From a phage, in sequence record PZ452582.1: 64,000 nt of DNA; one strand, written 5' to 3'. Below the pieces are notes generated by a model. That model did not search any database. It was not told the origin of the DNA and saw nothing but the letters and a program-made list of their open reading frames with translations. The stretch's first letter is position 1; the number at the start of each line of letters is the position of its first letter. The position numbers were made by a program, and so were the translations under genes. This document shows, piece after piece, positions 14,234 through 47,529 of this stretch.

Positions 14234-14299
14234 TTTTCACAAAACTGTTTACAAGACTGTTCTTCCATGGTACTATACAACTATCAACTACTGATACAG
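14234..14299 (+). promoter_or_regulatory. early promoter cassette (PeSL-type)
   Basis: GTTTAC 14247-14252, 17-nt spacer, TACTAT 14271-14276, then conserved leader ATCAACTACTGATACAG. Confidence 0.6.
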
Positions 14300-14313
14300 A
14301 TTTGGAGAATAAA

Positions 14314-14550
14314 ATGAAAATTGTTATGGGATGCTTAGCAGTTTGTTTAGTTGCATTAGCAGCAGTTCCATTTGTTAGTGTTGAAAATGATACTCAACCT
14401 GCGATTGAATCTAGCACCGTTATTCACACTAATGGTAAAATATCAGTTAAAATTGATGATAATCTTCATGTGAATACAAATGGATCTTTAGGTGTGCAAA
14501 TGGGTAATACCTGCATAAGCACTACTGGAGTAATTACTACTTGCATTTGA
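14314..14550 (+). CDS. small secreted or membrane protein
   Basis: 78 aa from ATG 14314; hydrophobic N-terminus MKIVMGCLAVCLVALAAVPFVS. Confidence 0.5.
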   Translation: MKIVMGCLAVCLVALAAVPFVSVENDTQPAIESSTVIHTNGKISVKIDDNLHVNTNGSLGVQMGNTCISTTGVITTCI

Positions 14551-14560
14551 GGAAATTATT

Positions 14561-14941
14561 ATGAAAATCGCTATTTTGGTTATTGCATTAGGTCTTACTG
14601 GTTGTGTAGCTCAAGGACCGGTAGTAAATCAGTCTGATGTAGGAAAAATTGTAAACTGTTCAAGCAAATTTTATAATCCTAATGTCAAGTGTTATAAAGA
14701 AGCTCCAAAGCAAACAGTAGAACAAATGCAGGCGAATTTTGACGAAGCTATTCGTCCAGATGAATCTGCTCAAGCATATCGTAATTCGGATGTAATTACA
14801 CGCGAAGAAAAAATTGAAAATTACTGCGCCGAGCTTTGGGCTAATTGGGCTAATAATTACCAATGGCGTACTGGTAAAAATGCTCCGATGGAGTATGTAG
14901 TGAATTCTTATAATTCATGTGTAAAAAATTTGACTAAGTGA
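14561..14941 (+). CDS. putative lipoprotein
   Basis: 126 aa; signal peptide with lipobox LTGC (MKIAILVIALGLTGCVAQ). Confidence 0.5.
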   Translation: MKIAILVIALGLTGCVAQGPVVNQSDVGKIVNCSSKFYNPNVKCYKEAPKQTVEQMQANFDEAIRPDESAQAYRNSDVITREEKIENYCAELWANWANNYQWRTGKNAPMEYVVNSYNSCVKNLTK

Positions 14942-14948
14942 GGAAAAT

Positions 14949-15263
14949 ATGGAAACTTTAGTAGCAGGTTCAATTTTTATGGTTTTAGTTTCAGGTGTGT
15001 TGGCTATTATTATATACATGCTTCCATGGTTTATTGCTTTGATGCGTGGGTCAAAATCGACAGTAGGAATCTTTTTCACATCTTTACTGTTTAACTGGTC
15101 AATTATTGGTTGGTTTATTACATTTATTTGGTCAATTGCGGGTGAAACTAAAAAGTCTGCACAACCAAATCAGGTAATTATCATCAGAGAGAGAAGGAAT
15201 GAAAAGCAAAATTATAGCAGTGTTGCTTTTAATCTTGATGATTATAATAAGTATATACTATAG
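14949..15263 (+). CDS. small integral membrane protein (possible Imm-like exclusion protein)
   Basis: 104 aa with two hydrophobic helices; lies between genes 43 and 42 where T4 imm sits. Confidence 0.5.
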   Translation: METLVAGSIFMVLVSGVLAIIIYMLPWFIALMRGSKSTVGIFFTSLLFNWSIIGWFITFIWSIAGETKKSAQPNQVIIIRERRNEKQNYSSVAFNLDDYNKYIL

Positions 15264-15355
15264 TGTAACGGTTCCTCTTATGATTCCGACTATTATTTTA
15301 GGTTGGAGCTTATTACTGTTACAAGTTAAATATGAATGTATCAATTGAGGTTTAA

Positions 15356-16096
15356 ATGATTAGTGACTCTATGACAGTTGAAGAAATCCGTCTTCATTTG
15401 GGGCTTGCATTAAAAGAAAAAGATTTCGTAGTTGATAAAACCGGTGTTAAAACTATTGAAATTATTGGCGCATCATTTGTAGCAGATGAACCGTTTATTT
15501 TTGGTGCTCTTAATGATGAATACATTCAGCGTGAACTTGAATGGTATAAATCTAAGAGCTTGTTCGTTAAAGATATTCCAGGTGAAACACCGAAGATTTG
15601 GCAACAAGTAGCATCTTCTAAAGGCGAAATTAACTCGAACTATGGTTGGGCTATTTGGTCAGAAGATAACTATGCCCAGTATGATATGTGTTTAGCTGAA
15701 CTTGGTCAAAATCCTGATTCTCGACGTGGTATCATGATTTATACTCGTCCATCCATGCAATTTGACTACAATAAAGATGGTATGTCAGATTTCATGTGTA
15801 CTAATACAGTACAGTACCTGATTCGTGATAAGAAAGTCAATGCAGTAGTAAGCATGCGCTCAAATGACGTGGTCTTCGGATTCCGTAATGATTATGCATG
15901 GCAAAAATACGTATTAGATAAATTAGTATCTGATTTGAATGCCGGCGATTCATCTCGTCAGTATAAAGCAGGTTCTATTATATGGAATGTCGGAAGTCTT
16001 CATGTATATTCTCGTCATTTTTACTTGGTTGATCATTGGTGGAATACTGGCGAAACTCATATTGTGAAAAAAGACTATAAAGGTGAGTGGAAATGA
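15356..16096 (+). CDS. 42: gp42 dCMP hydroxymethylase
   Basis: 246 aa MISDSMTVEEIRLHLGLALKEKDF...; T4 gp42 length; thymidylate-synthase-like fold. Confidence 0.93.
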   Translation: MISDSMTVEEIRLHLGLALKEKDFVVDKTGVKTIEIIGASFVADEPFIFGALNDEYIQRELEWYKSKSLFVKDIPGETPKIWQQVASSKGEINSNYGWAIWSEDNYAQYDMCLAELGQNPDSRRGIMIYTRPSMQFDYNKDGMSDFMCTNTVQYLIRDKKVNAVVSMRSNDVVFGFRNDYAWQKYVLDKLVSDLNAGDSSRQYKAGSIIWNVGSLHVYSRHFYLVDHWWNTGETHIVKKDYKGEWK

Positions 16097-16935
16097 TTCA
16101 ATTCGTAATTCCAAGTTATCAGCGTGTCAGGGCAGTTTCTGCCCTTGATATGTTTCCGACTGATTATGAACCGCATATTGTAGTGCGTGAACATGAAGAA
16201 AAAGCTTATCATGACGCTTATGGGTCTAGAGCTAAAATTATAACTATTCCTGATGATGTAAACGGAATTGCCGGTACTCGTAAAGCAATTACCGATATAT
16301 ATGCAGGTCAACGAATCTGGATGATTGACGATGATACTACTATTCGTATGAGTTCAATGCGAAAAAGAGATGATCGTCGTTGCGTAGATAAAGTCAATCA
16401 ATTGACTCGTGAACAGTTCTATGAATTGATTCAATATGTTGAGGATGCCATGGATTGCGGGTATTATCATGGCCATGCTCGTCTACCTATTTTTAAAATT
16501 ACTTCATCTTGGGGTAATTATCGTGAAAATTCATATGGATTCACGAATACATGGTATGACCTCGGAAAACTTACGACAGAACAAATTGGGTATGGAAAAA
16601 TTGATTTATGCGAAGATATGTATGCATTTCTCAATTTAATTAATCAAGGTTATCCGCATTTGGCCTTGTTCAAATATCTAGTTGTATCTGGAAAAGCACA
16701 AGCTCCTGGCGGGTGCAGTTCAATTCGTAGTAATTCTAAACATAATAGAGCGCTTGAGCAGATTAATAGAGAGTTTCCAGAGCAAGCTCGTTGGAAAACT
16801 TCTAATATTGAAAAACGAAAATCGTTGGGTGAAGAAGACGAACCATTAAAGGTTCTTCGCATGTGCGTTTCACGTAAAGAAAAATCAGAAGCATTTCATA
16901 AGTTTAATGCTATTCATCCAATAGCAGTTGATTAA
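16093..16935 (+). CDS. putative glycosyltransferase (DXD motif) in the beta-gt locus
   Basis: 280 aa from ATG 16093 (ATGA overlap with gene 42 stop); RIWMIDDDTTIR DXD-like motif; not the 351-aa T4 beta-gt. Confidence 0.6.
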   Translation: MIQFVIPSYQRVRAVSALDMFPTDYEPHIVVREHEEKAYHDAYGSRAKIITIPDDVNGIAGTRKAITDIYAGQRIWMIDDDTTIRMSSMRKRDDRRCVDKVNQLTREQFYELIQYVEDAMDCGYYHGHARLPIFKITSSWGNYRENSYGFTNTWYDLGKLTTEQIGYGKIDLCEDMYAFLNLINQGYPHLALFKYLVVSGKAQAPGGCSSIRSNSKHNRALEQINREFPEQARWKTSNIEKRKSLGEEDEPLKVLRMCVSRKEKSEAFHKFNAIHPIAVD

Positions 16936-17012
16936 TGCCTAAATTTATTGTGTTATAATTACTCTATCTTTAACCAGTGAGGAAAATATAATGATGCCTA
17001 TGGAAAAAATGA

Positions 17013-18194
17013 ATGTCTATTGCAGATTTAAAATCCCGTTTGATTAAAGCTTCCACTTCTAAAATGACTGCTGAACTGACTACATCTAAATTCTTTAATG
17101 AAAAGGATGTAATTCGTACAAAAATTCCAATGCTTAATATTGCTATTTCTGGTGCGATTGATGGCGGCATGCAGTCTGGTTTAACTATTTTCGCAGGGCC
17201 TTCTAAACACTTTAAATCAAATATGTCTTTGACTATGGTTGCGGCATATTTGAACAAATATCCTGACGCGGTTTGTCTATTCTATGATAGTGAATTTGGT
17301 ATTACTCCAGCTTATTTGCGATCCATGGGAGTTGACCCGGAACGAGTAATTCATACGCCGATTCAGTCAGTTGAACAGCTGAAAATTGATATGGTGAACC
17401 AGCTTGAAGCTATTGAGCGTGGTGAAAAGGTTATTGTATTCATCGACTCAATTGGTAATATGGCTTCTAAGAAAGAAACGGAAGATGCCTTGAATGAAAA
17501 ATCTGTGGCAGATATGACTCGTGCTAAATCACTGAAGTCATTATTCCGTATTGTTACTCCTTACTTTAGCATTAAAAATATTCCATGTGTTGCGGTTAAC
17601 CATACAATTGAAACAATTGAAATGTTTAGTAAAACCGTGATGACAGGTGGTACAGGCGTAATGTATTCGGCTGATACTGTATTCATTATCGGTAAGCGTC
17701 AGATTAAAGATGGTTCTGATCTTCAGGGGTATCAATTTGTTCTAAATGTAGAAAAATCTCGTACCGTTAAAGAAAAAAGTAAATTCTTTATTGATGTTAA
17801 ATTTGACGGTGGTATCGATCCTTATTCTGGATTGTTAGATATGGCTCTAGAATTAGGATTTGTAGTAAAACCTAAAAATGGTTGGTATGCTCGTGAATTT
17901 CTTGACGAAGAAACCGGCGAGATGATTCGCGAAGAAAAATCTTGGCGTGCAAAAGATACTAACTGCACTACATTCTGGGGTCCTTTATTTAAGCATCAAC
18001 CATTCCGAGATGCTATTAAGCGTGCTTATCAGTTAGGTGCTATTGATAGTAATGAAATTGTTGAAGCGGAAGTTGATGAATTAATTAACTCAAAGGTTGA
18101 AAAATTTAAATCCTCAGAAAGTAAAAGTAAATCAGCAGCTGATTTAGAAACTGACCTCGAGCAGTTAAGTGATATGGAAGAATTTAATGAATAA
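17013..18194 (+). CDS. uvsX: UvsX recombinase (RecA-like)
   Basis: 393 aa MSIADLKSRLIKASTSK...; RecA-like Walker A GPSKHFKS; position between 42 locus and 40/41. Confidence 0.95.
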   Translation: MSIADLKSRLIKASTSKMTAELTTSKFFNEKDVIRTKIPMLNIAISGAIDGGMQSGLTIFAGPSKHFKSNMSLTMVAAYLNKYPDAVCLFYDSEFGITPAYLRSMGVDPERVIHTPIQSVEQLKIDMVNQLEAIERGEKVIVFIDSIGNMASKKETEDALNEKSVADMTRAKSLKSLFRIVTPYFSIKNIPCVAVNHTIETIEMFSKTVMTGGTGVMYSADTVFIIGKRQIKDGSDLQGYQFVLNVEKSRTVKEKSKFFIDVKFDGGIDPYSGLLDMALELGFVVKPKNGWYAREFLDEETGEMIREEKSWRAKDTNCTTFWGPLFKHQPFRDAIKRAYQLGAIDSNEIVEAEVDELINSKVEKFKSSESKSKSAADLETDLEQLSDMEEFNE

Positions 18195-18531
18195 AGATGA
18201 TTTAGATTTAGATCTAGAAATTATCGATGAATCCCCCTCTTCGGAGGGGGAAGAAGAAAGAAAAGAACGTCTTTTTAATGAATCTCTTAAGATAATTAAA
18301 TCTGCCATGGAAAATGTTATCCAGGAGATTGTCATTAAACTAGAAGATGGTTCTACACATATAGTGTATGTAACTAAACTGGATTGGGTTGATGGAAAGG
18401 TTGTAATGGACTTTGCTGTTCTTGACCAAGAAAGAAAAGCTGAGTTAGCTCCTCATGTAGAAAAATGTATTACAATGCAACTACAAGATGCATTTAATAA
18501 AAGGTCAAAGAAAAAGTTTAAATTCTTTTAA
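18187..18531 (+). CDS. 40: gp40 (putative)
   Basis: 114 aa from ATG 18187 (track GTG 18169), between uvsX and 41 as in T4. Confidence 0.6.
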   Translation: MNKDDLDLDLEIIDESPSSEGEEERKERLFNESLKIIKSAMENVIQEIVIKLEDGSTHIVYVTKLDWVDGKVVMDFAVLDQERKAELAPHVEKCITMQLQDAFNKRSKKKFKFF

Positions 18532-18540
18532 GGAGTAAGT

Positions 18541-19968
18541 GTGGTAGAAATTATTCTTTCTCATCTTATATTTGATCAAGCTTATTTTTCAAAAGTTTGG
18601 CCATATATGGATTCAGAATATTTTGAAAGTGGTCCAGCTAAAAATACATTCAAATTAATTAAATCTCATGTCAACGAGTACCATAGCGTTCCATCTATTA
18701 ATGCGTTAAATGTTGCATTAGAAAATAGTTCATTTACTGAAACAGAATATTCTGGTGTAAAAACACTTATTTCAAAACTGGCTGATTCTCCAGAAGACCA
18801 CAGCTGGTTAGTAAAAGAAACAGAAAAATATGTTCAGCAAAGGGCGATGTTTAATGCTACGTCTAAAATAATCGAAATTCAAACTAATGCTGAGCTTCCT
18901 CCGGAAAAACGAAATAAGAAAATGCCGGATGTTGGTGCTATTCCTGACATCATGCGGCAAGCATTATCTATTTCATTTGATAGTTACGTTGGTCATGATT
19001 GGATGGATGACTATGAAGCACGTTGGCTATCTTATATGAATAAAGCTCGTAAAGTTCCATTTAAACTCAGAATTCTAAACAAAATTACTAAAGGCGGAGC
19101 TGAAACAGGAACACTGAACGTTTTAATGGCTGGCGTTAACGTTGGTAAATCATTAGGATTGTGTTCATTAGCGGCAGATTATTTACAGCTCGGACATAAT
19201 GTTCTTTACATTTCCATGGAAATGGCAGAAGAAGTCTGTGCTAAGCGTATTGACGCTAACATGCTTGATGTTTCTCTTGATGACATTGATGATGGGCATA
19301 TTTCTTACGCTGAATATAAAGGAAAAATGGAAAAATGGCGTGAGAAATCTACCCTTGGTCGTTTAATCGTTAAGCAATATCCTACTGGTGGAGCAGACGC
19401 TAATACATTTCGATCACTTTTAAATGAATTAAAGCTCAAGAAGAATTTTGTTCCAACAATCATTATTGTCGACTATCTAGGTATTTGTAAATCTTGCCGC
19501 ATTAGAGTTTATTCAGAAAATAGTTACACAACTGTTAAAGCTATCGCAGAGGAATTGCGTGCTCTGGCTGTTGAAACCGAAACTGTTCTTTGGACTGCAG
19601 CACAGGTTGGTAAACAAGCTTGGGACTCTTCCGATGTTAACATGAGCGATATTGCAGAATCTGCTGGTCTTCCAGCAACAGCTGATTTTATGCTTGCGGT
19701 CATTGAAACCGAGGAGCTAGCAGCTGCTGAACAACAACTCATTAAGCAAATCAAATCACGATATGGTGATAAGAATAAGTGGAATAAGTTTTTGATGGGT
19801 GTTCAAAAAGGAAATCAAAAATGGGTAGAAATTGAACAAGATTCTACTCCAACTGAAGTGAGTGAAGTAGCAGGTTCACAACAGATTCAGGCTGAGCAGA
19901 ATCGCTATCAAAGAAATGAATCCACTCGAGCTCAGTTAGATGCTTTGGCAAATGAATTAAAATTTTAG
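18541..19968 (+). CDS. 41: gp41 replicative DNA helicase (DnaB-like)
   Basis: 475 aa MVEIILSHLIFDQAYF..., GTG start, Walker A GVNVGKS; T4 gp41 length. Confidence 0.95.
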   Translation: MVEIILSHLIFDQAYFSKVWPYMDSEYFESGPAKNTFKLIKSHVNEYHSVPSINALNVALENSSFTETEYSGVKTLISKLADSPEDHSWLVKETEKYVQQRAMFNATSKIIEIQTNAELPPEKRNKKMPDVGAIPDIMRQALSISFDSYVGHDWMDDYEARWLSYMNKARKVPFKLRILNKITKGGAETGTLNVLMAGVNVGKSLGLCSLAADYLQLGHNVLYISMEMAEEVCAKRIDANMLDVSLDDIDDGHISYAEYKGKMEKWREKSTLGRLIVKQYPTGGADANTFRSLLNELKLKKNFVPTIIIVDYLGICKSCRIRVYSENSYTTVKAIAEELRALAVETETVLWTAAQVGKQAWDSSDVNMSDIAESAGLPATADFMLAVIETEELAAAEQQLIKQIKSRYGDKNKWNKFLMGVQKGNQKWVEIEQDSTPTEVSEVAGSQQIQAEQNRYQRNESTRAQLDALANELKF

Positions 19969-19997
19969 TTTACAAGCTGACAAGACTATGGTATAGT
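19968..19997 (+). promoter_or_regulatory. early promoter
   Basis: GTTTAC 19968-19973, 17-nt spacer, TATAGT 19992-19997, upstream of dmd. Confidence 0.55.
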
Positions 19998-20026
19998 AGT
20001 CTTGTTGGTTAAATGAGGAGATTGTT

Positions 20027-20209
20027 ATGGAATTGGTAAAGGTAGTTTTTATGGGGTGGTTTAAGAATGAAAGCATGTTTACTAAAGAAACCACAATGAT
20101 GAAAGATGACGTTCAATGGGCTACTACTCAATATGCTGAAGTTAATAAAGCATTAGTTAAAGCTTTCATTGATGACAAGAAAGTATGTGAAGTAGATTGC
20201 CGAGGATAA
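20027..20209 (+). CDS. dmd: Dmd antitoxin (inhibitor of host RnlA/LsoA toxins)
   Basis: 60 aa MELVKVVFMGWFKNESMFTKE...; length and position next to gene 41 as T4 61.5/dmd; sequence recall not fully certain. Confidence 0.75.
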   Translation: MELVKVVFMGWFKNESMFTKETTMMKDDVQWATTQYAEVNKALVKAFIDDKKVCEVDCRG

Positions 20210-20210
20210 T

Positions 20211-20468
20211 ATGCATATTGTTTTATTTAAACCTACTCCGTATAACGTCAGGAAAAATACGCAATTCAAAGCACTTATTGCAGATACGTGGGAATTGGTG
20301 CTAGATATTCCAACAGAAGAAAGTCCTCCATTTGGTCGAGTGGAATTTATTAAGTTTGCTGTACGTCCTACGAAGAGGCAGATTCGTCAGTGTAAAAGGT
20401 ATTTTCGTAAAATCGTCAAGTTAGAGAAACAGTTTGTAACATGTGATTATGCAGAAGTTTTAAAATAG
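20211..20468 (+). CDS. hypothetical basic protein (61.4 position; possibly TifA-like)
   Basis: 85 aa; basic segment RPTKRQIRQCKRYFRK; adjacent to dmd. Confidence 0.5.
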   Translation: MHIVLFKPTPYNVRKNTQFKALIADTWELVLDIPTEESPPFGRVEFIKFAVRPTKRQIRQCKRYFRKIVKLEKQFVTCDYAEVLK

Positions 20469-20470
20469 CT

Positions 20471-20500
20471 GTTTACTTTTGTTGGAAATTGAGATACTAT
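20471..20500 (+). promoter_or_regulatory. early promoter
   Basis: GTTTAC 20471-20476, 17-nt spacer, TACTAT 20495-20500. Confidence 0.5.
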
Positions 20501-20528
20501 ATAAACATAAACTACTGAGGAGATTATC

Positions 20529-20822
20529 ATGAAAAAATTTATCTTTGCTGCAATTTTTGCTTTAGCTTCTTGTGCTGCTCAGCCTGCTATGGCAGGTTAT
20601 GATAAAGATTTGTGTGAATGGTCTATGACTGCGGATCAGACTGAAGTTGAAACTCAAATTGAAGCGGATATTATGAATATCGTTGAGCGCGATCGTCCTG
20701 AAATGAAAGCTGAAGTGCAAAAACAGCTTAAGTCTGGTGGTGTAATGCAGTATAATTATGTTCTGTATTGCGATAAAAACTTTAATAACAAAAATATCGT
20801 AACCGAAATCACAGGTGAATAA
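20529..20822 (+). CDS. sp: Spackle periplasmic superinfection-exclusion protein (putative)
   Basis: 97 aa with cleavable signal peptide MKKFIFAAIFALASCAAQPAMA; length and 61.3 position. Confidence 0.7.
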   Translation: MKKFIFAAIFALASCAAQPAMAGYDKDLCEWSMTADQTEVETQIEADIMNIVERDRPEMKAEVQKQLKSGGVMQYNYVLYCDKNFNNKNIVTEITGE

Positions 20823-20823
20823 T

Positions 20824-21980: not shown

Positions 21981-21983
21981 AGA

Positions 21984-23308: not shown

Positions 23309-24648
<1,340 letters not shown>

Positions 24649-33250: not shown

Positions 33251-33277
33251 AACACCATAGCTACTGAGGATAATAAA

Positions 33278-33781
33278 ATGAAAATTTATCGTGTTGAATC
33301 ATCATTTAGTATTCTTAATTATGAAGATGCTATAACAATACGTCGAGATCTTTGTGTTCAAATAACGCCATACAGGAGTATAATGGATTCATGGAGCGAA
33401 GAGTGGTTATTACACGTAGGTTATGACAGACCTAATTTTATGCATCATAGTAATGATAATAAAAGAATTCCTCTTCCGCACGAAGACAAACTATTAGTTA
33501 AAAATGCTAATATAGCAATTAATACTAATTTTGAGAAAGAAGAATATGTAGGCGTAGATCACTATATTCCAGGATGGTTTATAGCTCTTTATCATTTTGC
33601 TTTTGCTAGTGAATATGATATGATGAGATGGTTCACACGAGAAGAGCGTGAAGAATTAGCTTCTAAAGGATTTTATCTCGCTGTATACGAAGTACCTGAA
33701 GATAAAGTTATCATTGGTGGGCATCAAGTAATGTTCCGCAAGTCACATGCCGAATTAAAAGGCTTTATTACCTTAGATTAA
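33278..33781 (+). CDS. hypothetical protein (MotB position)
   Basis: 167 aa from ATG 33278; follows dexA as motB does in T4; identity not confirmed. Confidence 0.5.
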   Translation: MKIYRVESSFSILNYEDAITIRRDLCVQITPYRSIMDSWSEEWLLHVGYDRPNFMHHSNDNKRIPLPHEDKLLVKNANIAINTNFEKEEYVGVDHYIPGWFIALYHFAFASEYDMMRWFTREEREELASKGFYLAVYEVPEDKVIIGGHQVMFRKSHAELKGFITLD

Positions 33782-34794: not shown

Positions 34795-34891
34795 AGTTTA
34801 AAATTTTTTCATAAAACTATATACATCAGTAGTTGATTATGGTACTATATCAATATCAACTACTGATACAGAAAATAACTTGGAGAATAAA

Positions 34892-35161
34892 ATGGAAAAT
34901 TTAATTATCATCGAGCAATCTTTCAATGATTATGGTATGGCTTACGGTTATCGTGTGATAATGGAAGATTCTCGTGGATGTGTTATCGATATTGCTGAAT
35001 GTAAAGATTTACTGCAGCTTTTGAAGATTGTTCGCAAAAATTGGGATTGCGAAAATATTAAAGTTCGAGTTGTTACAGAAGAAGAAACTGTTTTTCATGA
35101 TGTAAAATTCGCTAAAGGTGCTGCTACTCTTCTGAAACGTATCGCTCCAATGTTTAATTAA
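34892..35161 (+). CDS. hypothetical protein
   Basis: 89 aa from ATG 34892; shares the leader and GGAGAATAAAATG start context with the ORF at 14314. Confidence 0.45.
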   Translation: MENLIIIEQSFNDYGMAYGYRVIMEDSRGCVIDIAECKDLLQLLKIVRKNWDCENIKVRVVTEEETVFHDVKFAKGAATLLKRIAPMFN

Positions 35162-38772: not shown

Positions 38773-38782
38773 TGAGGAAATT

Positions 38783-40960
38783 ATGATTATCACCACTGAA
38801 AAAGAAACAATTCTTGGTAATGGTTCTAAATCAAAAGCATTTAGCATCACAGCATCTCCTAAAGTATTTAAAATTCTGTCATCTGATTTGTATACAAACA
38901 AAATTCGCGCAGTAGTCCGTGAATTGATTACCAACATGATTGATGCCCATGCTCTCAATGGAAATCCTGAAAAATTTATCATCCAAGTTCCTGGACGTTT
39001 AGATCCACGATTTGTTTGCCGAGATTTTGGTCCCGGTATGAGTGATTTTGATATTCAGGGTGATGATAATTCTCCTGGTTTGTATAATTCATACTTCAGT
39101 TCATCTAAGGCTGAATCTAACGATTTCATTGGCGGATTTGGTTTAGGTTCTAAATCTCCGTTTAGTTATACTGATACGTTTAGTATTACTTCATACCATA
39201 AAGGTGAAATTCGTGGTTATGTAGCTTACATGGATGGTGATGGCCCACAGATTAAACCTACATTCGTAAAAGAAATGGGTCCAGATGATAAAACTGGTAT
39301 TGAAATCGTAGTTCCAGTTGAAGAAAAAGACTTTAGAAACTTTGCTTATGAAGTTTCTTATATCATGCGACCATTCAAAGATTTGGCTATCATTAATGGT
39401 CTTGACCGCGAAATTGATTATTTTCCGGATTTTGATGATTATTACGGTGTAAATCCAGAAAGATACTGGCCAGATCGTGGTGGATTATATGCTATCTACG
39501 GCGGTATCGTTTATCCTATCGATGGTGTTATTAGAGACCGTAACTGGCTAAGCATTCGCAATGAAGTGAATTACATTAAGTTTCCAATGGGTTCACTGGA
39601 TATTGCTCCATCTCGCGAGGCTCTTTCACTTGATGATCGTACTCGTAAAAATATTATTGAACGAGTTAAAGAACTCAGTGAGAAAGCATTTAATGAAGAT
39701 GTAAAACGATTTAAAGAATCTACATCTCCTCGTCATACATATCGTGAATTGATGAAGATGGGGTATTCTGCTCGAGATTATATGATTAGTAATTCAGTCA
39801 AATTCACGACTAAAAATCTGTCATATAAGAAAATGCAGAGCATGTTTGAACCTGACAGTAAGCTATGCAATGCAGGGGTTGTGTATGAAGTAAATCTTGA
39901 CCCTCGACTGAAGCGTATTAAGCAAAGTCATGAAACTTCAGCCGTTGCATCAAGTTATCGTCTGTTTGGTATTAATACAACAAAAATTAATATCGTTATT
40001 GATAATATTAAAAATCGTGTTAATATTGTCCGTGGATTAGCACATGCGTTAGATGATAGTGAATTTAATAACACTTTAAATATTCATCACAATGAGCGTC
40101 TTCTGTTTATTAATCCGGAAGTAGAATCGCAGATTGATTTACTCCCTGATATTATGGCGATGTTTGAAAGTGATGAAGTTAACATTCACTATTTGTCAGA
40201 AATTGAAGCTTTAGTAAAAAGTTATATTCCAAAGGTAGTTAAAAGTAAAGCTCCTCGTCCTAAAGCTGCTACAGCATTTAAGTTTGAAATTAAAGACGGG
40301 CGCTGGGAAAAAGAGGAATTATTTACGCTCACATCAGAAGCAGATGAAATTACTGGTTATGTAGCGTATATGCATCGTTCTGATATTTTCTCTATGGATG
40401 GTACTACATCGCTTTGTCATCCATCTATGAATATTTTGATTCGTATGGCTAATCTTATTGGCATTAATGAATTTTATGTTATTCGTCCGCTTTTGCAGAA
40501 AAAGGTAAAAGAACTCGGTCAGTGCCAATGTATTTTTGAAGCTTTGCGTGATTTATATGTAGATGCTTTTGATGATGTAGATTATGATAAGTACGTAGGT
40601 TATTCAAGTTCAGCTCAACGATATATTGATAAAATTATCAAGCATCCTGAACTAGATTTTATGATGAAGTACTTCAGTACAGATGAAGTTTCTGAAGAAT
40701 ATACACGACTCGCTAATATAGTTAGTTCATTGCGGGGCGTATATTTCAACGGTGGAAAAGGTACCATCGGTCATGACATCTGGACAGTAACTAATCTTTT
40801 TGATGTATTATCAAATAATGCTTCAAAAAACAGCGATAAAATGGTTGCTGAGTTTACCAAGAAATTCCGTATTGTTTCCGACTTCATCGGTTATCGCAAC
40901 TCTTTAAGTGATGATGAAGTTTCTCAAATCGCTAAAACTATGAAGGCCCTTGCGGCCTAA
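38783..40960 (+). CDS. rIIA: rIIA membrane-associated protein
   Basis: 725 aa [32 protein letters not shown]...; T4 rIIA length and recall. Confidence 0.95.
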
Positions 40961-40971
40961 TAAGGAAAATT

Positions 40972-41910
40972 ATGTACAATATTAAATGCCTGACCAAAAA
41001 CGAACAAGCTGAAATTGTTAAACTGTATTCAAGCGGTAATTACACCCAACAGGAATTGGCTTATTGGAAGGATGTATCGGTTGACACAATCCGTCGTGTT
41101 TTGAAAAATGCTGAAGAAGCTAAACGCCCTAAAGTTACTATTAGCGGTGATATTACAGTTAAAGTTAATAGCGATGCAGTTATTGCTCCAGTTGCTAAAT
41201 CTGACATTATTTGGAATGCATCTAAAAAATTCATTTCAATTACTGTTGATGGTGTAACTTATAACGCAACTCCTAATACTCATTCAAACTTCCAGGAAAT
41301 TCTTAATCTGCTTGTTGCAGATAAATTGGAAGAAGCGGCGCAAAAAATTAATGTTCGTCGCGCTGTTGAAAAATATATTTCCGGTGATGTTCGAATTGAA
41401 GGTGGAAGCTTGTTCTATCAAAATATTGAATTGCGGTCTGGTTTAGTTGATCGTATTCTCGATTCGATGGAAAAAGGTGAAAACTTTGAATTTTATTTTC
41501 CGTTCTTGGAAAATCTGCTGGAAAACCCGAGCCAAAAAGCGGTATCTCGACTCTTTGATTTCTTGGTAGCAAACGATATTGAAATTACAGAAGATGGCTA
41601 CTTCTATGCTTGGAAAGTAGTTCGTAGTAATTACTTTGACTGCCATTCAAATACTTTTGATAACAGTCCCGGTAAAGTAGTTAAAATGCCACGTACTCGT
41701 GTGAATGACGATGATACACAAACTTGTTCTCGTGGTCTGCATGTGTGTTCTAAATCTTATATTCGTCACTTTGGTAGTTCAACCAGCCGAGTTGTAAAAG
41801 TTAAAGTACATCCTCGCGATGTAGTATCAATTCCGATTGATTACAACGATGCTAAAATGCGTACCTGCCAATACGAAGTAGTTGAAGACGTTACTGAACA
41901 ATTTAAATAA
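40972..41910 (+). CDS. rIIB: rIIB protein
   Basis: 312 aa MYNIKCLTKNEQAEIVKLYSSGNYTQQELA...; T4 rIIB length. Confidence 0.93.
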   Translation: MYNIKCLTKNEQAEIVKLYSSGNYTQQELAYWKDVSVDTIRRVLKNAEEAKRPKVTISGDITVKVNSDAVIAPVAKSDIIWNASKKFISITVDGVTYNATPNTHSNFQEILNLLVADKLEEAAQKINVRRAVEKYISGDVRIEGGSLFYQNIELRSGLVDRILDSMEKGENFEFYFPFLENLLENPSQKAVSRLFDFLVANDIEITEDGYFYAWKVVRSNYFDCHSNTFDNSPGKVVKMPRTRVNDDDTQTCSRGLHVCSKSYIRHFGSSTSRVVKVKVHPRDVVSIPIDYNDAKMRTCQYEVVEDVTEQFK

Positions 41911-41938
41911 GGGCTTCGACCCTTAACTAAGGAAAATT

Positions 41939-42133
41939 ATGTTAGGTTATCAAGCACGAGTAAAAGAAGAATACGATCAATTAATGCTCAAAATTAATGC
42001 ACTGAGCAAATTTTTAGAAAGTACAAAGTTTCTAACGATTAATGAAGTTGAGCAAGAATTACTGCTTTCACAGTTCATCTCAATGAAATCTTACGCAGAT
42101 TGTTTAGAAAAAAGAATTGCACAATTCAAATAA
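41939..42133 (+). CDS. hypothetical protein
   Basis: 64-aa ORF after rIIB. Confidence 0.4.
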   Translation: MLGYQARVKEEYDQLMLKINALSKFLESTKFLTINEVEQELLLSQFISMKSYADCLEKRIAQFK

Positions 42134-42136
42134 AAT

Positions 42137-42160
42137 AAGGGGCTTCGGCCCTTTTGTTTT
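42137..42160 (+). terminator. intrinsic terminator GGGGC-TTCG-GCCC-TTTTGTTTT
   Basis: GC stem, UUCG loop, T-rich tail. Confidence 0.65.
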
Positions 42161-42171
42161 AAGGAAAAATT

Positions 42172-42501
42172 ATGATTTATTGTATGAATATCGGTGATTC
42201 CGACATAAAAGAGATTAAACTGCACGGAAACCATCACGCTAATATTGTGTACTGTAATAAATTTGAGTTTGGTCACGAAAAACTTGGGTTTCTTTACTGT
42301 AATGATGTTATAGTCATGGATAAAAAGGAGCTCGATGAACTTGACCGCGAGTCTTTAGATGAAAATGACCGAATTTATTACGGCACTCTTAAAGTATATA
42401 ACGCTTATCTCAGTGGTAAAAAGGAAAGTCTAAATGCAGAAAACGAATCCGGGTTTACAGAGACTATTTCAGATTCCGACATTTACCCTATCGAACGGTG
42501 A
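42172..42501 (+). CDS. hypothetical protein
   Basis: 109-aa ORF, overlaps next ORF by 68 nt. Confidence 0.4.
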   Translation: MIYCMNIGDSDIKEIKLHGNHHANIVYCNKFEFGHEKLGFLYCNDVIVMDKKELDELDRESLDENDRIYYGTLKVYNAYLSGKKESLNAENESGFTETISDSDIYPIER

Positions 42502-42991
42502 CTTGACTAGTGAAATGAAGGTCAAAATTGCTGATACAGCAAGATACTCTTTAAAACAAAACCCGAACCAGGATAAAGCAGAAGTTATTGAAAGATGTCG
42601 TATCGCTGTGTACGCAGAATTTTTTGTAGCAGATTGGTTAAGCGGGTATGTTAATAAAGGCCAAGAGGATGTTAATGACCCGTATACATACGCATGGGAT
42701 GTATTGGCGCATCCAAGATACTGCGGGCTTCGTGTAGAAGTTAAGACACACCAAACTGACTCACGTTGGATTTCTGTAACAACAGGATGCAGCGGAGAGT
42801 ATCCATACGGTTCTGGAATAAATCTAGGGCCCATTCTAAATCATCAAGTCGCTGACTGTATAATTATATTCAACACTAAAGAAATTCATCCAGGTGTCAT
42901 CCAGTACACTCCGAAGTTCATCGGTGACAGAGAAGACCTTCGTAAGGTTGTAAGAAAAAGCAACTACAACGGATGGTATCTTTCCATTTAA
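42434..42991 (+). CDS. denB: DenB endonuclease IV (putative)
   Basis: 185 aa, T4 DenB length; lies between rIIB and ndd; true start may be internal. Confidence 0.65.
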   Translation: MQKTNPGLQRLFQIPTFTLSNGDLTSEMKVKIADTARYSLKQNPNQDKAEVIERCRIAVYAEFFVADWLSGYVNKGQEDVNDPYTYAWDVLAHPRYCGLRVEVKTHQTDSRWISVTTGCSGEYPYGSGINLGPILNHQVADCIIIFNTKEIHPGVIQYTPKFIGDREDLRKVVRKSNYNGWYLSI

Positions 42992-43008
42992 AAAATTTTC
43001 ACAAAACG

Positions 43009-43038
43009 GTTTACATACCACAAGGACTGTGGTACTAT
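43009..43038 (+). promoter_or_regulatory. early promoter cassette
   Basis: GTTTAC 43009-43014, 17-nt spacer, TACTAT 43033-43038; near-identical to the cassettes at 14247, 46823 and 63857. Confidence 0.55.
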
Positions 43039-43065
43039 ACAACTATCGGCTACGGAGGAGTAAAA

Positions 43066-43329
43066 ATGAAATTTAAATTTTATTACGCTAAACATAAAAT
43101 AACTGATGAGTTTGTGTCAGTTGAATATTCTAGCGATGATGAAGGCATGATTTATACTCGCTTGGGACTATCGCATTGGGAGTCTGATACGCCTTATTTT
43201 TCAACTCCCGAAGAAATTACACGCTTAGTTAATGGTCATATGAATGACCACTGGTGTGTAATTCTTTCAGATAGTCTTAAAGCGGCTATTAATAGTAATG
43301 AAATGAAAATCGCTGAGATTGAACTATGA
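43066..43329 (+). CDS. hypothetical protein
   Basis: 87 aa from ATG 43066 after GGAGG. Confidence 0.45.
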   Translation: MKFKFYYAKHKITDEFVSVEYSSDDEGMIYTRLGLSHWESDTPYFSTPEEITRLVNGHMNDHWCVILSDSLKAAINSNEMKIAEIEL

Positions 43330-43514
43330 GTTCATTGTGGTGGTGTTTTGTTTGGTTAATTAGTATTCCATTAATTTGTTTAACATTTACTTTTGTAATG
43401 AGGTTATTATGAAAATTTTGAATTCTGTACTTATTGCTTGTGCATGGTGGGTTGCGCAAGTTTCAGCGGTAGTAGTTGGTATTCACATTTATTACGAATA
43501 TTTTTAAAAAAGTT

Positions 43515-43544
43515 GTTTACAAGACTGTTCCTCTGTGGTATTAT
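43515..43544 (+). promoter_or_regulatory. early promoter
   Basis: GTTTAC 43515-43520, 17-nt spacer, TATTAT 43539-43544. Confidence 0.5.
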
Positions 43545-43572
43545 TACCCTATCAACTACGGAGGAACAGAAA

Positions 43573-43686
43573 ATGAAAAAGATTGTTAAAGCTATATGGA
43601 ATGTAGTTATAATATTAGTAGTTTTGAGTATATTCCCAATCGTTTTAATGATTGATGTATTAAACGCTTACTTTGGATTTATGTGA
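43573..43686 (+). CDS. small membrane protein
   Basis: 37 aa MKKIVKAIWNVVIILVVLSIFPIVLMIDVL..., GGAGG SD. Confidence 0.35.
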   Translation: MKKIVKAIWNVVIILVVLSIFPIVLMIDVLNAYFGFM

Positions 43687-43693
43687 GGAAAAT

Positions 43694-43891
43694 ATGAAGC
43701 GTAAACGCGGTGCTTTTACATTTATTGAATGGTTTTTCGATAATATTTTTCCGGCTTTATTCATTTTCATGCTGATTTTCGCCTTAGGTTCAGCTGTAGT
43801 TGGAATTTATTTGATGGCGGTTGTCGGAATGGACATTCATCAAAATGGCTTAAAATCTGTGGTTGAAACAATTTGGAATGGTGTAAAATAA
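43694..43891 (+). CDS. small membrane protein
   Basis: 65 aa from ATG 43694, two hydrophobic helices. Confidence 0.4.
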   Translation: MKRKRGAFTFIEWFFDNIFPALFIFMLIFALGSAVVGIYLMAVVGMDIHQNGLKSVVETIWNGVK

Positions 43892-43998
43892 TGAATTTAC
43901 TAAGCATTTGGTTTTATATTCTCATGTTTTACGTTGGTGCAAATTTTCCGTATTGGATGGGATGGTCAACAACTGCATTTGGATTTTATACTCCCTGA
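43891..43998 (+). CDS. small membrane protein (not in ORF track)
   Basis: 35 aa MNLLSIWFYILMFYVGANFPYW... Confidence 0.3.
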   Translation: MNLLSIWFYILMFYVGANFPYWMGWSTTAFGFYTP

Positions 43999-44006
43999 GG
44001 TGAATT

Positions 44007-44222
44007 ATGAAAATTTTTAAAGATGTAAAAGTTGGCGAAATTTTTTGCTTGGATAGTGGTGATCAGTTAATTCGTATTTCACCTCTTAAGAGCACTAGCG
44101 AGAAAATGACAGTTAACGCTACTTTAGTAAACAACAGTAATGAACGTTTCTGTATTGAAAATGATACTGAAACTTATACTGTAGAAGAGTTCTGGGAATT
44201 GAGCGTCGACTGCGACGATTAA
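44007..44222 (+). CDS. hypothetical protein
   Basis: 71-aa ORF. Confidence 0.4.
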   Translation: MKIFKDVKVGEIFCLDSGDQLIRISPLKSTSEKMTVNATLVNNSNERFCIENDTETYTVEEFWELSVDCDD

Positions 44223-44281
44223 TTTATCGGCCGTGTGTATTCATGCGGCCTTGGAGTAGAAAATAATTAGAGGAAATTAAT

Positions 44282-44737
44282 ATGAAATACATGACTGTTA
44301 CTGATCTGAATAATGCAGGTGCTACTGTTATTGGTACAATCAAGGGCGGTGAATGGTTTTTGGGAACTCCACACAAAGATATTTTATCTAAACCTGGATT
44401 TTACTTTTTAGTGAGTAAACTCGATGGTCCATTTGATAGTCCATGCGTATCTGCACGATTTTATGTAGGTAATCAGCGTTCTAAGCAAGGGTTCAGTGCA
44501 GTTCTAAGTCATATTCGTCAACGTCGGTCTCAGCTTGCGCGTACTATTGCAAATAACAATGTTCCATACACGGTATTTTATTTGCCTGCTTCTAAGATGA
44601 AACCTTTGACGACAGGATTTGGAAAAGGTCAGTTAGCTTTAGCGTTTACTCGTAATCATCATTCTGAGTATCAAACACTTGAAGAAATGAACCGTATGTT
44701 GGCTGATAACTTTAAATTTGTTTTGCAGGCATACTAA
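44282..44737 (+). CDS. ndd: Ndd nucleoid disruption protein
   Basis: 151 aa, T4 Ndd length; position between denB region and stp/52. Confidence 0.88.
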
Positions 44738-44910
44738 TGAAAGCTCTATTTGTAATGGGTTACCTATTAGTTTTAGCCTTATTCACATTGACTGGAATCT
44801 TTACAGCTTTAGGTCTACCTCTTAATGATAATGTGGCTGTCGTGATGTGTGTAGGTGGCGGATTTATCTGTTTTGAACGTTTATGCAAAATGTGTGGTGT
44901 GTATGAGTAA
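44737..44910 (+). CDS. small membrane protein (possibly ac-like)
   Basis: 57-aa hydrophobic ORF; stop overlaps stp start. Confidence 0.35.
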
Positions 44911-44983
44911 TTTCCATAACGAACATGTGATGCAGTTCTATCGTAACAATCTTAAAACCAAAGGCGTCTTCGGACGCCAGTGA
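44903..44983 (+). CDS. stp: Stp peptide (activator of host PrrC anticodon nuclease)
   Basis: 26-codon [29 protein letters not shown], matching recalled T4 Stp; not in the ORF track. Confidence 0.8.
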
Positions 44984-44990
44984 GGAAAAT

Positions 44991-45149
44991 ATGAATATCG
45001 CAAAATTATTAGGAGTTATTTCATTTATTTGTTGGATAGTAGCATGTGTTTTAACTATCTGTATCGATGCTAGCAGTGTGTTTTCACAAGCTTTAGCCCA
45101 GGGTATGTGTGCATATTTAACATTTGTGTTGTTATCTACTAATGATTAA
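44991..45149 (+). CDS. small membrane protein
   Basis: 52-aa ORF MNIAKLLGVISFICWIVACVL... Confidence 0.35.
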   Translation: MNIAKLLGVISFICWIVACVLTICIDASSVFSQALAQGMCAYLTFVLLSTND

Positions 45150-45282
45150 GAAAATCTTGGGCTATTCATTAGCCCTTGCTACTTTATTGGTAGCACTATA
45201 TTATGGAGTAATGTTCGGATTAATTCAAGTCGTGCTTTTCATTTCTGATGTTATTATGGCACTACATTCACTAGTATGGTAA
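45142..45282 (+). CDS. small membrane protein
   Basis: 46-aa ORF MIKKILGYSLALATLLVALYYGV... Confidence 0.3.
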   Translation: MIKKILGYSLALATLLVALYYGVMFGLIQVVLFISDVIMALHSLVW

Positions 45283-45286
45283 ATTT

Positions 45287-46615
45287 ATGCAACTGAATAA
45301 TCGCGATTTAAAAAGTATCATTGATAATGAAGCATTGGCTTATGCTATGTACACGGTTGAAAATCGTGCTATTCCAAATATGATTGATGGATTTAAGCCA
45401 GTTCAACGATTTGTTATTGCTCGAGCTCTTGATTTGGCACGAGGAAATAAAGATAAGTTTCACAAACTCGCTTCTATTGCAGGTGGTGTAGCGGACCTTG
45501 GATATCACCATGGTGAAAACTCTGCACAAGATGCGGGGGCTTTGATGGCTAACACTTGGAATAATAACTTTCCTTTGTTAGATGGTCAAGGAAACTTTGG
45601 TTCTCGTACCGTTCAAAAAGCAGCAGCAAGTCGTTATATTTTTGCTCGTGTAAGTAAAAATTTCTATAACGTATATAAAGATACTGAATATGCTCCGGTA
45701 CATCAAGATAAAGAACACATTCCGCCTGCTTTCTATTTGCCTATTATTCCTACTGTTCTTCTTAATGGCGTTTCCGGTATTGCAACTGGTTATGCAACTT
45801 ACATTCTTCCTCATAGTGTTTCTTCTGTCAAGAAAGCTGTACTGCAAGCTCTTCAAGGAAAGAAAGTAACTAAACCGAAGGTAGAATTCCCAGAATTTCG
45901 TGGTGAAGTCGTTGAGATTGACGGTCAATATGAAATTCGTGGAACGTACAAGTTTACTTCACGAACTCAAATGAATATCACTGAGATTCCGTATAAGTAT
46001 GATCGTGAAACTTATGTGAGTAAAATCTTAGACCCACTTGAAGATAAAGGCTTCATTACATGGGATGATGCTTGTGGTGAGCATGGCTTTGGCTTCAAAG
46101 TTAAATTCCGTAAAGAATATTCTTTGAGCGATAACGAAGAAGAACGCCATGCAAAAATTATGAAAGACTTCGGGTTGATTGAGCGTCGTTCTCAGAATAT
46201 TACGGTTATTAATGAAAAAGGAAAACTACAAGTTTACGATAACGTAGTCGATTTAATTAAAGACTTTGTTGAAGTTCGTAAAACTTATGTCCAAAAACGA
46301 ATTGATAATAAAATTAAAGAAACTGAGTCAGCTTTTCGTTTAGCCTTTGCCAAGGCGCATTTCATTAAGAAAGTAATTTCAGGTGAAATTGTTGTTCAAG
46401 GTAAAACTCGTAAAGAACTGACCGAAGAACTTTCGAAAATTGAGATGTATTCTTCTTATGTTGATAAACTAGTCGGAATGAATATTTTTCATATGACTTC
46501 CGACGAAGCAAAGAAACTTGCTGAAGAAGCTAAAGCTAAGAAAGAAGAAAACGAATATTGGAAAACTACTGATGTAGTTACAGAATACACCAAAGATTTA
46601 GAGGAAATCAAATGA
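45287..46615 (+). CDS. 52: gp52 topoisomerase II medium subunit (GyrA-like)
   Basis: 442 aa MQLNNRDLKSIIDNEALAYAMYTVENRAIP...; T4 gp52 length. Confidence 0.93.
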   Translation: MQLNNRDLKSIIDNEALAYAMYTVENRAIPNMIDGFKPVQRFVIARALDLARGNKDKFHKLASIAGGVADLGYHHGENSAQDAGALMANTWNNNFPLLDGQGNFGSRTVQKAAASRYIFARVSKNFYNVYKDTEYAPVHQDKEHIPPAFYLPIIPTVLLNGVSGIATGYATYILPHSVSSVKKAVLQALQGKKVTKPKVEFPEFRGEVVEIDGQYEIRGTYKFTSRTQMNITEIPYKYDRETYVSKILDPLEDKGFITWDDACGEHGFGFKVKFRKEYSLSDNEEERHAKIMKDFGLIERRSQNITVINEKGKLQVYDNVVDLIKDFVEVRKTYVQKRIDNKIKETESAFRLAFAKAHFIKKVISGEIVVQGKTRKELTEELSKIEMYSSYVDKLVGMNIFHMTSDEAKKLAEEAKAKKEENEYWKTTDVVTEYTKDLEEIK

Positions 46616-46761
46616 GTCCATTCATAGGTATTACAAGCGCTGCATTAGTATCCGGTAGCATTTTACTGGCGGGTTTAGGTGTTGTTCCAGCCGTAGCAGG
46701 AGGTCTTCTTGCGTTCGGAATTCAACGTGTTATCATGACAGTTATCACAGTCATGCAGTAA
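46612..46761 (+). CDS. small membrane protein
   Basis: about 49 aa MSPFIGITSALVSGSILLAGLGVVPAV..., overlaps gene 52 stop. Confidence 0.35.
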   Translation: MSPFIGITSAALVSGSILLAGLGVVPAVAGGLLAFGIQRVIMTVITVMQ

Positions 46762-46766
46762 TTTTA

Positions 46767-46792
46767 GGGAGAGCCTCGGCTCTCCCTTTTTT
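46767..46792 (+). terminator. intrinsic terminator GGGAGAGC-CTCG-GCTCTCCC-TTTTTT
   Basis: 8-bp GC-rich stem followed by T6. Confidence 0.75.
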
Positions 46793-46822
46793 ATTTCAAA
46801 AAAAAAAAAAATTCACAAAACG

Positions 46823-46852
46823 GTTTACAACCAAAGCATACTGTGGTACTAT
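46823..46852 (+). promoter_or_regulatory. early promoter cassette upstream of motA
   Basis: GTTTAC 46823-46828, TACTAT 46847-46852; preceded by a 14-nt A tract (46798-46811). Confidence 0.55.
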
Positions 46853-46893
46853 ACAACTATCAACTGCTGATACAGAATTACGGAGATTAGAAA

Positions 46894-47529
46894 ATGTCTA
46901 AAGTAACTTACATCATCAAAGCTTCTAACGATGTTCTGAATGAAAAAACCGCTGCGATTTTAATTACTATTGCTAAGAAAGATTTCATTACAGCCGCAGA
47001 AGTTCGTGAGGTGCATCCAGATTTAGGTAACGCAGTAGTTAATAGTAATATTGGGGTATTGATTAAAAAAGGCCTGGTGGAGAAATCTGGTGATGGATTA
47101 ATCATTACTGGTGAAGCTCAGGATATTATTTCAAACGCAGCAACTTTATATGCACAGGAAAATGCTCCGGAACTTCTGAAAAAACGTGCTACTCGTAAAG
47201 CTCGCGAGATTACTTCCGATATGGAAGAAGATAAAGATCTCATGTTAAAACTTTTAGATGAAAATGGATTTGTTCTTAAAAAGGTTGAAACTTATCGTAG
47301 TAATTATCTTGCTATTTTAGAAAAACGCACTCACGGAATTCGCAATTTTGAAATTAACAACAATGGAAACATGCGAATTTTTGGATACAAAATGATGGAA
47401 CATCATATTCAGAAATTTACTGACATCGGAATGTCATGTAAAATCGCTAAAAACGGTAATGTGTATCTTGACATTAAACGCTCGGCAGAAAACATTGAAG
47501 CAGTAATCACTGTAGCATCTGAACTGTGA
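46894..47529 (+). CDS. motA: MotA middle-transcription activator
   Basis: 211 aa MSKVTYIIKASNDVLNEKTAAILITIAKKDF...; T4 MotA length. Confidence 0.92.
   Translation: MSKVTYIIKASNDVLNEKTAAILITIAKKDFITAAEVREVHPDLGNAVVNSNIGVLIKKGLVEKSGDGLIITGEAQDIISNAATLYAQENAPELLKKRATRKAREITSDMEEDKDLMLKLLDENGFVLKKVETYRSNYLAILEKRTHGIRNFEINNNGNMRIFGYKMMEHHIQKFTDIGMSCKIAKNGNVYLDIKRSAENIEAVITVASEL

Follow-up and report, generated by a model that had tools for sequence, protein, structure and literature searches.

The window, a 64,000-nt (64-kb) stretch of phage DNA (PZ452582.1), comes from a T2/T6-like Tequatrovirus and carries one leader in front of three unrelated plus-strand genes, as the initial annotation had claimed. 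The 17-mer ATCAACTACTGATACAG at its core is exact at site 1 (14283–14299) and site 2 (34855–34871) and recurs with a single mismatch (A to G) at site 3 (ATCAACTGCTGATACAG, 46859–46875). Four matches at three or fewer mismatches are seen in the window against 0.23 expected, a number reached in 0 of 100 shuffles; the fourth is an inverted partial copy on the minus strand (34821–34837). The translation-initiation context said to be identical in two of the copies, GGAGAATAAAATG, is indeed exact at 14304 and 34882. Downstream lie the genes first described as a small secreted protein, an 89-aa ORF and motA: a 78-aa ORF with a hydrophobic N-terminus (phrog_4189, 14314–14550, ATG 14314–14316), an 89-aa ORF (phrog_3720, 34892–35161, ATG 34892–34894) and motA itself (211 aa, 46894–47529).

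Each copy begins 7 nt past the −10 element of a T4-type early promoter, on the early strand and directly upstream of an early gene. Synteny makes all three orthologous to T4 early promoters, the T4 counterparts lying before imm.1, upstream of cef and before motA. The consensus of the T4 early promoter (Pe) was reportedly set out by Wilkens and Rueger in 1994 and by Miller et al. in 2003. Sites 1 (14248–14276) and 3 (46824–46852; the T4 ortholog is nearly identical) have every element of it, namely GTTTAC(A/T), a 17-bp spacer, TGn with TAYWAT and an A/T-rich tract upstream, and both read TTTACA, 17 bp, TGG-TACTAT as an extended −10. Terminator-like stem-loops precede both, one at 14143–14160 (a 7-bp stem with five G-C pairs, followed by TTTTT) and one between gene 52/motA.1 and the motA promoter, close to the latter (46766–46787). 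At site 2 the UP tract and TGG-TACTAT (−10 at 34843–34848) are accompanied by a degenerate −35 (TATACA, 34820–34825), which leaves the site one match short in a simple promoter scan. A 13-bp perfect inverted repeat on the plus strand, ATCAGTAGTTGAT / ATCAACTACTGAT (34825–34867), brackets this −10; read through into RNA it would form a hairpin of −20.2 kcal/mol (z −4.7), and it is identical in T4, ELT1, FJ1, JE01 and two metagenome contigs. We infer the transcription start from its spacing after the −10, which at site 1 makes the A at 14283 the probable +1. The first ~6 nt of the intervals originally quoted as leader (for example, 14277–14282) therefore belong to the promoter, between the −10 and the probable start. 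The long form is carried by only 3 of the ~14 early promoters in the window; the remaining ones have shorter relatives such as ATCGGCTACGGAGGAG or AACTACTGAGGAG.

Each leader is very probably the three-layered, transcribed 3′ end of one of three paralogous T-even immediate-early promoter cassettes, spread by recombination. Such a cassette would run from a terminator stem-loop through an UP-like A/T tract, GTTTACA, 17 bp, TGG-TACTAT and a start region to a Shine-Dalgarno sequence and ATG. The start region, ATCAACTA (+1 to ~+8), is an element of the consensus of T4 early promoters at large: in a set of 30, each position from −3 to +8 carries 0.5–1.0 bit, conservation on a par with the UP region. 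At motA, ATCA(A) directly follows the −10 in four of six other genera (Dhaka-, Gelderland-, Karam- and Mosigvirus), with ATCAG only in Winklervirus and ATACCAA in Jiaodavirus, and everything beyond it has diverged in all six. The window promoters share the reviewed consensus (UP-like tract, GTTTAC, TGn and a TAnnAT −10; PMC2988021). The published descriptions consulted are silent past the start; the conservation from +1 to +8 was measured here. The same review mentions 'additional regions of consensus' of unknown role in early promoters, and an early-promoter logo places the putative start at nucleotide 0 in a text that covers nothing past position −1 (PMC1524935). Host sigma-70 RNA polymerase probably makes use of this layer when choosing the start site or during initial transcription.

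The 3′ end of the leader has a documented counterpart. At sites 1 (14304–14314) and 2 (34882–34892), the Shine-Dalgarno sequence abuts the ATG and is at the same time an exact RegB/S1 consensus, GGAGAATAAAA, and these are the only two exact matches to GGAGRAYARAA (GGA(G) plus an A-rich 7-mer) in the 64-kb window. The motA equivalent (GGAGATTAGAA, 46882–46892) has 10 of the 11 consensus letters and reproduces exactly the Shine-Dalgarno sequence of T4 motA, a documented target that RegB cuts. Durand et al. (2006, PMC1702504) identified GGAGAAUAAAA as the optimal RegB/S1 site in T4, and sites 1 and 2 resemble that system in using this exact optimum as a Shine-Dalgarno sequence on early transcripts whose RNA is unstructured there; in our minimum-free-energy structures the site is unpaired and the leaders are unstructured. 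The regB gene itself is expected to lie beyond the window; 502 phage records carry it at ≥95% identity, among them that of NBEco003, a 98% relative of the window. Placed right before AUG, GGAGAAUAAAA would act both as Shine-Dalgarno sequence and as optimal target of the endoribonuclease RegB with ribosomal protein S1. According to published work, T4 mRNAs with this site are translated strongly at early times and then, a few minutes later, turned off by a cut inside GGAG; the same switch-off presumably operates in the window phage. The site spans only the last 11 nt of the leader, and it leaves the 17-mer unexplained because no requirement or consensus 5′ of GGAG was found (PMC1702504). A common post-transcriptional control site, as initially proposed, is accordingly upheld for the 3′ half of the leader in the form of RNase cleavage, and not for an sRNA or protein site at the inverted repeat.

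Between these two layers lies CTGATAC(A/G)G with a variable A/C-rich linker, which is found only in a single sub-family of paralogous cassettes. Six such long-leader copies occur in T4, five before ndd.6, motA, e.8, nrdC.10 and imm.1 and one upstream of cef. When paralogous copies are compared, the 17-bp spacer between −35 and −10 is wholly different while the block from −10 through +17 is identical, and the block is kept in orthologous copies from T4, the window and metagenome contigs. Among the few unique variants sampled, the 17-mer is less variable than the linker next to it and than some positions of the RegB site, and this low variation could, within the limits of that sample, reflect an extra constraint outside the best explanation. 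The literature searched yielded neither mapped T4 start sites nor a function for the 17-mer. The segment appears to be a marker of one cassette lineage with no demonstrable structure, most likely an unstructured spacer that would keep the ribosome-binding site single-stranded. An IHF site (WATCAANNNNTTR) was also considered here and rejected, judged by sequence alone, as TATCAACTACTGA fails the TTR part.

The inverted repeat TATCA-ACTAC-TGATA had suggested an RNA structure or a site for an sRNA or protein, and it could be read as a 5′-terminal hairpin (AUCA/UGAU, loop ACUAC) that stabilizes mRNA against 5′-end-dependent decay or is a target for a regulator or sRNA. All three copies in the window have both arms, as do five of the six T4 long leaders (that of nrdC.10 has a 3-nt deletion), and two of the substitutions seen fall in the loop: T to C in L018, and the A to G of the window motA 17-mer, which is also its one-base difference from T4 motA. 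A 7-bp 5′ hairpin of −7.6 kcal/mol is conceivable for a distinct early leader, that of frd.3 (63894). Folded alone and together with the coding start, however, the leaders give a TATCA-N5-TGATA hairpin of only −0.6 kcal/mol, and whole leaders do no better than shuffles (z +0.3 to +0.6). Pair counts over 22 aligned leaders give 0 compensatory changes, the C-G pair no longer forms in 7 of 19 aligned leaders, and natural variants at the same loci break the repeat (ATCAACTACTAATACGG, ATCAACTAATACGG and a widespread 3-nt deletion, ATCAACTGATACGG). The structure prediction and covariation analysis proposed for the leader thus speak against a fold, and a scan of the whole window with Rfam gave no match at gathering score. 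Conservation in related phages, which had also been proposed as a check, holds for the start region ATCA(A) (four of six genera at motA) and breaks down for the inverted repeat, whose 3′ arm is absent from the motA leaders of all six other genera and of Tequatrovirus ELT1. The E. coli ompA leader is one example of a 5′-terminal stabilizing stem-loop. The repeat here shares its location at the extreme 5′ end of the transcript, but its stem is four A/U-rich pairs, without stability, covariation or conservation. We regard the hairpin as largely refuted and hardly credible.

The same letters might instead act as DNA, the start region with its palindrome TATCA-N5-TGATA going beyond ordinary promoter recognition, either as an initial-transcribed sequence tuned so that polymerase can escape from very strong promoters or as an operator through which a phage or host factor shuts off early transcription. 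Conservation from −3 to +8 as strong as that of the UP region, its persistence across genera, the lower variation of the 17-mer relative to its flanks, and reviews that describe extra consensus of unknown role and an incompletely understood shut-off all agree with such a function. The full palindrome, however, occurs in only a minority of early promoters, the common 3-nt deletion leaves 2 instead of 5 positions between the arms, a change incompatible with a dimeric binder, and descent with recombination explains the sharing without an extra function; we consider this reading unlikely. A broader version, in which −3 to +17 (a general cTATCAACTA, with the palindrome in the sub-family) forms a T-even immediate-early DNA or nascent-RNA element for promoter escape or as a target of a shut-off factor, seems to us very doubtful. 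At the other extreme, the similarity could be the remnant of recent duplication, pure hitch-hiking with no constraint, and the cassettes have clearly spread through recombination. This is highly improbable, given that the spacers of paralogs differ wholly where −10 through +17 is identical, that the block is kept in the orthologs of T4, the window and the metagenome contigs, and that the RegB/Shine-Dalgarno part is functionally documented.

The leader is best placed among promoter cassettes: it is no new RNA control element but the transcribed tail of a known T4-type early-promoter cassette, ending in a published RegB target. Three documented T4 features, the extended early-promoter consensus, the RegB/S1 switch-off site and cassette recombination, explain its repetition before unrelated genes. 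Little in this is new; it adds clean cases of cassette-mediated gene gain and loss and of the swapping of promoter halves in T2/T6-like phages. Unrelated genes have a leader in common because cassette copies recombine and ORFs are inserted or deleted there, the mechanism of PeSL cassettes, as comparative mosaicism shows. For PeSL (promoter-early stem-loop) cassettes of T4-like phages, mapping put the crossovers in the stretch from the −10 to the Shine-Dalgarno sequence or ATG, and a stem-loop may extend over the −10 (Arbiol et al. 2010, PMC2839356; Comeau et al. 2014, PMC4122927). The window cassettes match them in architecture (a stem-loop or terminator followed by an A/T-rich tract and TTTACW-N17-TAYWAT, with Shine-Dalgarno sequence and ATG closing the 3′ end), in being repeated before unrelated small early genes, and in the gain, loss and replacement of ORFs between close relatives. 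The crossover zone of PeSL cassettes corresponds to the leader. A stem-loop adjoins the promoter at 14143–14160 and 46766–46787 and overlaps it at site 2, where the repeat encloses the −10; the conserved block ends, on its 3′ side, in the Shine-Dalgarno sequence and start codon; and the junctions of indels and replacements between close relatives lie inside the cassette. The 17-mer sub-family with its inverted repeat differs in not having been singled out in the PeSL papers.

A recombination footprint, the other origin initially suggested for the leader, is borne out by comparison with T4 and other Tequatroviruses, in which crossovers and indels fall exactly at the cassettes and ORF gains and losses exactly at the leader. 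At site 1, the 78-aa ORF is present or absent among relatives with a junction at ATGAAAAT, and in T4, which is without it, the same leader is joined directly to imm.1. The 89-aa ORF of site 2 is likewise present or absent, T4 keeping the promoter and leader with only an 11-codon remnant after them. ELT1 has an extra ORF between two cassettes, with a crossover at CTATCAA, and its motA leader has been replaced wholesale. A pattern scan of IMG/VR gave only 11 loci; a separate metagenome scan was the source of useful variation. Strong concerted evolution within a genome was considered and rejected: contig ULRM01008302.1 has four different leader variants at four loci, and therefore no strong homogenization. 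Promoter halves are exchanged as well, the frd.3 leader being found behind at least six different −35/−10 spacers across phages and one type of −35/−10 spacer occurring with three different leaders.

The 17-mer ATCAACTACTGATACAG occurs exactly at 14283 (site 1) and 34855 (site 2) and with one mismatch at 46859 (site 3), ahead of an ORF of 78 amino acids, an ORF of 89 amino acids and motA, respectively. At up to three mismatches the window holds four matches against 0.23 expected, the fourth being an inverted partial copy at 34821–34837. Exact copies of GGAGAATAAAATG lie at 14304 and 34882, and the exact 17-mer is also found in T4's own motA leader. The shared leader reported in the initial annotation is present as given in all three stretches, and the repeat is real and non-random. 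Judged from sequence, it is the already described early promoter cassette of T-even phages, which has a ribosome-binding site sensitive to RegB (a phage endoribonuclease) and ribosomal protein S1 and has spread by cassette recombination.

Gene 43 and imm.1 flank site 1, motB and cef flank site 2, and gene 52/motA.1 and motA flank site 3; the early-gene strand is the plus strand of the window. Over 4 kb around site 1 the sequence is 98–99% identical to T2/T6-like Tequatroviruses (for example, JK1 and teqdroes), and collinearity with T4 extends over the whole window (T4 ~40 kb down through 0 to ~147 kb). Positions 50303–53876, the tail-fibre adhesin region (genes 37/38), align poorly with T4 at the nucleotide level, leaving a gap that contains a single 65% match, as expected for an adhesin of T2 rather than T4 type.

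Every leader copy follows a T4-type early promoter (GTTTACA, 17 bp, TGG-TACTAT), starting 7 nt past its −10. A terminator stem-loop closely precedes the promoter at sites 1 and 3; at site 2 the −35 is degenerate (TATACA), with the UP-like tract and extended −10 retained. The long leader is found on 3 of the roughly 14 such promoters in the window; some others have shorter relatives in which ATC(A/G)(A/G)CTAC leads directly into the Shine-Dalgarno sequence (for example, ATCGGCTACGGAGGAG or AACTACTGAGGAG). With 30 T4 early promoters aligned at their −10, each position from −3 to +8 (cTATCAACTA) has an information content of 0.5–1.0 bit, similar to the UP region, with decay beyond. Upstream of motA in six other genera (Dhaka-, Gelderland-, Jiaoda-, Karam-, Winkler- and Mosigvirus), ATCAA directly follows the −10 in four, with ATCAG in Winklervirus and ATACCAA in Jiaodavirus; CTACTGATACAG is not kept there in any of the six. 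GGAG precedes the motA AUG in all six; the tail behind it is A-rich in five, the Winklervirus sequence being GGAGUUACAAA. Conservation to +8 in T4, together with ATCAA at motA of other genera, assigns the first half of the 17-mer to the general early-promoter consensus, in keeping with the 'additional regions of consensus' of unknown role noted in review (PMC2988021). Among collected variants, low variation extends over +1 to +8 in general and, in this sub-family, over +9 to +17; the region may act at the DNA level in initiation, promoter escape or promoter shut-off, a role to which our analysis lends no support.

The end of the leader carries the putative RNase signal. RegB cuts have been mapped across T4 (Durand et al. 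2006), the efficient target with S1 being a single-stranded 11-mer, GGAGAAUAAAA (general form GGAGRAYARAA), that needs no information 5′ of GGAG (PMC1702504). This optimum is present without any change at sites 1 and 2, where it ends at the AUG, and the 64-kb window has no other exact match to GGAGRAYARAA. The motA version, GGAGAUUAGAA, does not differ between the window and T4, where the motA Shine-Dalgarno sequence is a documented RegB target, restricting synthesis of MotA to the first minutes after infection. GGATAATAAAATG (33268–33280), ahead of the motB.2 ortholog, corresponds to a site that RegB cuts in T4, where just two intergenic GGAU sites are listed as cut (PMC1702504). The regB gene, expected to lie outside the window, is present at no less than 95% identity in 502 phage records, one of them a 98% relative of the window. 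The suggestion of RNase cleavage was thus well placed: the ribosome-binding site appears to be of the RegB/S1-sensitive type, at its published optimum at sites 1 and 2.

The inverted repeat TATCA-N5-TGATA had also been proposed as an RNA control element, which both structure prediction and covariation contradict. As RNA the leaders are essentially unfolded, with −0.6 kcal/mol predicted for the AUCA/UGAU hairpin and z-scores of +0.3 to +0.6 for whole leaders against dinucleotide shuffles. In variants drawn from T4, three further Tequatrovirus genomes, IMG/VR and a metagenome scan, the 5′ arm is invariant, most copies having been found by a pattern fixing its first three bases, and it overlaps the general promoter consensus. 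Natural variants at the same loci disrupt the 3′ arm (ATCAACTACTAATACGG and ATCAACTAATACGG), as does a widespread 3-nt deletion (ATCAACTGATACGG). The C-G pair is missing in 7 of 19 aligned leaders, a pair count over 22 aligned leaders gave no compensatory changes and Rfam returned no match; on these grounds we reject a structured hairpin. Leaders are A/C-rich and G/U-poor across genera, which would fit a need to remain unstructured for S1, the ribosome and RegB.

The alternative suggestion, a recombination footprint, explains why unrelated genes share the leader, as cassettes are mosaic between phages. T4 has six long-leader copies, before ndd.6, motA, e.8, nrdC.10 and imm.1 and upstream of cef. 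The frd.3 leader is found behind at least six different −35/−10 spacers, indicating that upstream promoter halves were swapped repeatedly, and spacer accaaagcatactgt is paired with three leaders (motA, frd.3 and a third). The locus downstream of denB carries the long leader and ndd.6 in T4; in the window, that upstream half is joined to another leader and gene. In ELT1 (L023, 18160–18640) and several metagenome contigs, two early-promoter cassettes enclose an extra 75-aa ORF between motA.1 and motA: the upstream cassette matches the T4-type motA promoter as far as the crossover at cTATCAA, and the downstream one, with the motA leader, is Dhakavirus-like; this reads as a clear cassette-mediated insertion. 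The site 1 ORF (phrog_4189; 14314–14550), with a signal-peptide-like N-terminus, sits between the early promoter and imm.1; T4 lacks it and joins the leader directly to imm.1, the junction being 8 nt (ATGAAAAT) common to both start regions. The site 2 ORF (phrog_3720; 34892–35161) is intact here and deleted between AAAAT microhomologies in T4 (6483–6560), ELT1, FJ1 and JE01, so that only a short remnant (in T4, 11 codons with the AAAAT junction) still follows this promoter and leader; FJ1 has in addition a decayed Shine-Dalgarno sequence, GAAG. The same mosaic behaviour is described for promoter-early stem-loop (PeSL) cassettes of T4-like phages, whose definition takes in the Shine-Dalgarno sequence and ATG, whose stem-loops can overlap the −10 and whose experimentally mapped crossovers fall between the −10 and the Shine-Dalgarno sequence or ATG (PMC2839356, PMC4122927).

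Three promoters show further features. The frd.3 promoter (63857–63930; orthologs at T4 146846 and in comparison sequences L024, L025, L029, L030, L034, L041, L054, L056 and L064) retains its leader, ATCGGCAATACTGCTGATGA, which could fold into a 7-bp 5′ hairpin (window, −7.6 kcal/mol; weaker in T4). The motA UP-element region (46799–46813), contacted by the RNA polymerase alpha subunit, reads 13 A in a run and then ATTCAC, against AAAAATTTTTTCAC in T4, a difference that is either length variation of the homopolymer or an artefact of assembly. The −10 of site 2 is surrounded by a perfect 13-bp inverted repeat (ATCAGTAGTTGAT ... ATCAACTACTGAT; 34825–34867); in read-through RNA from motB the repeat is predicted to form a hairpin (−20.2 kcal/mol, z −4.7) with no U-tract behind, and on the minus strand, owing to the near-symmetry, TGATATAGT, 6 nt and ATCAACTACTGAT give an extended −10 promoter geometry directed back into motB. 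This repeat is unchanged in T4, ELT1, FJ1, JE01 and two metagenome contigs.
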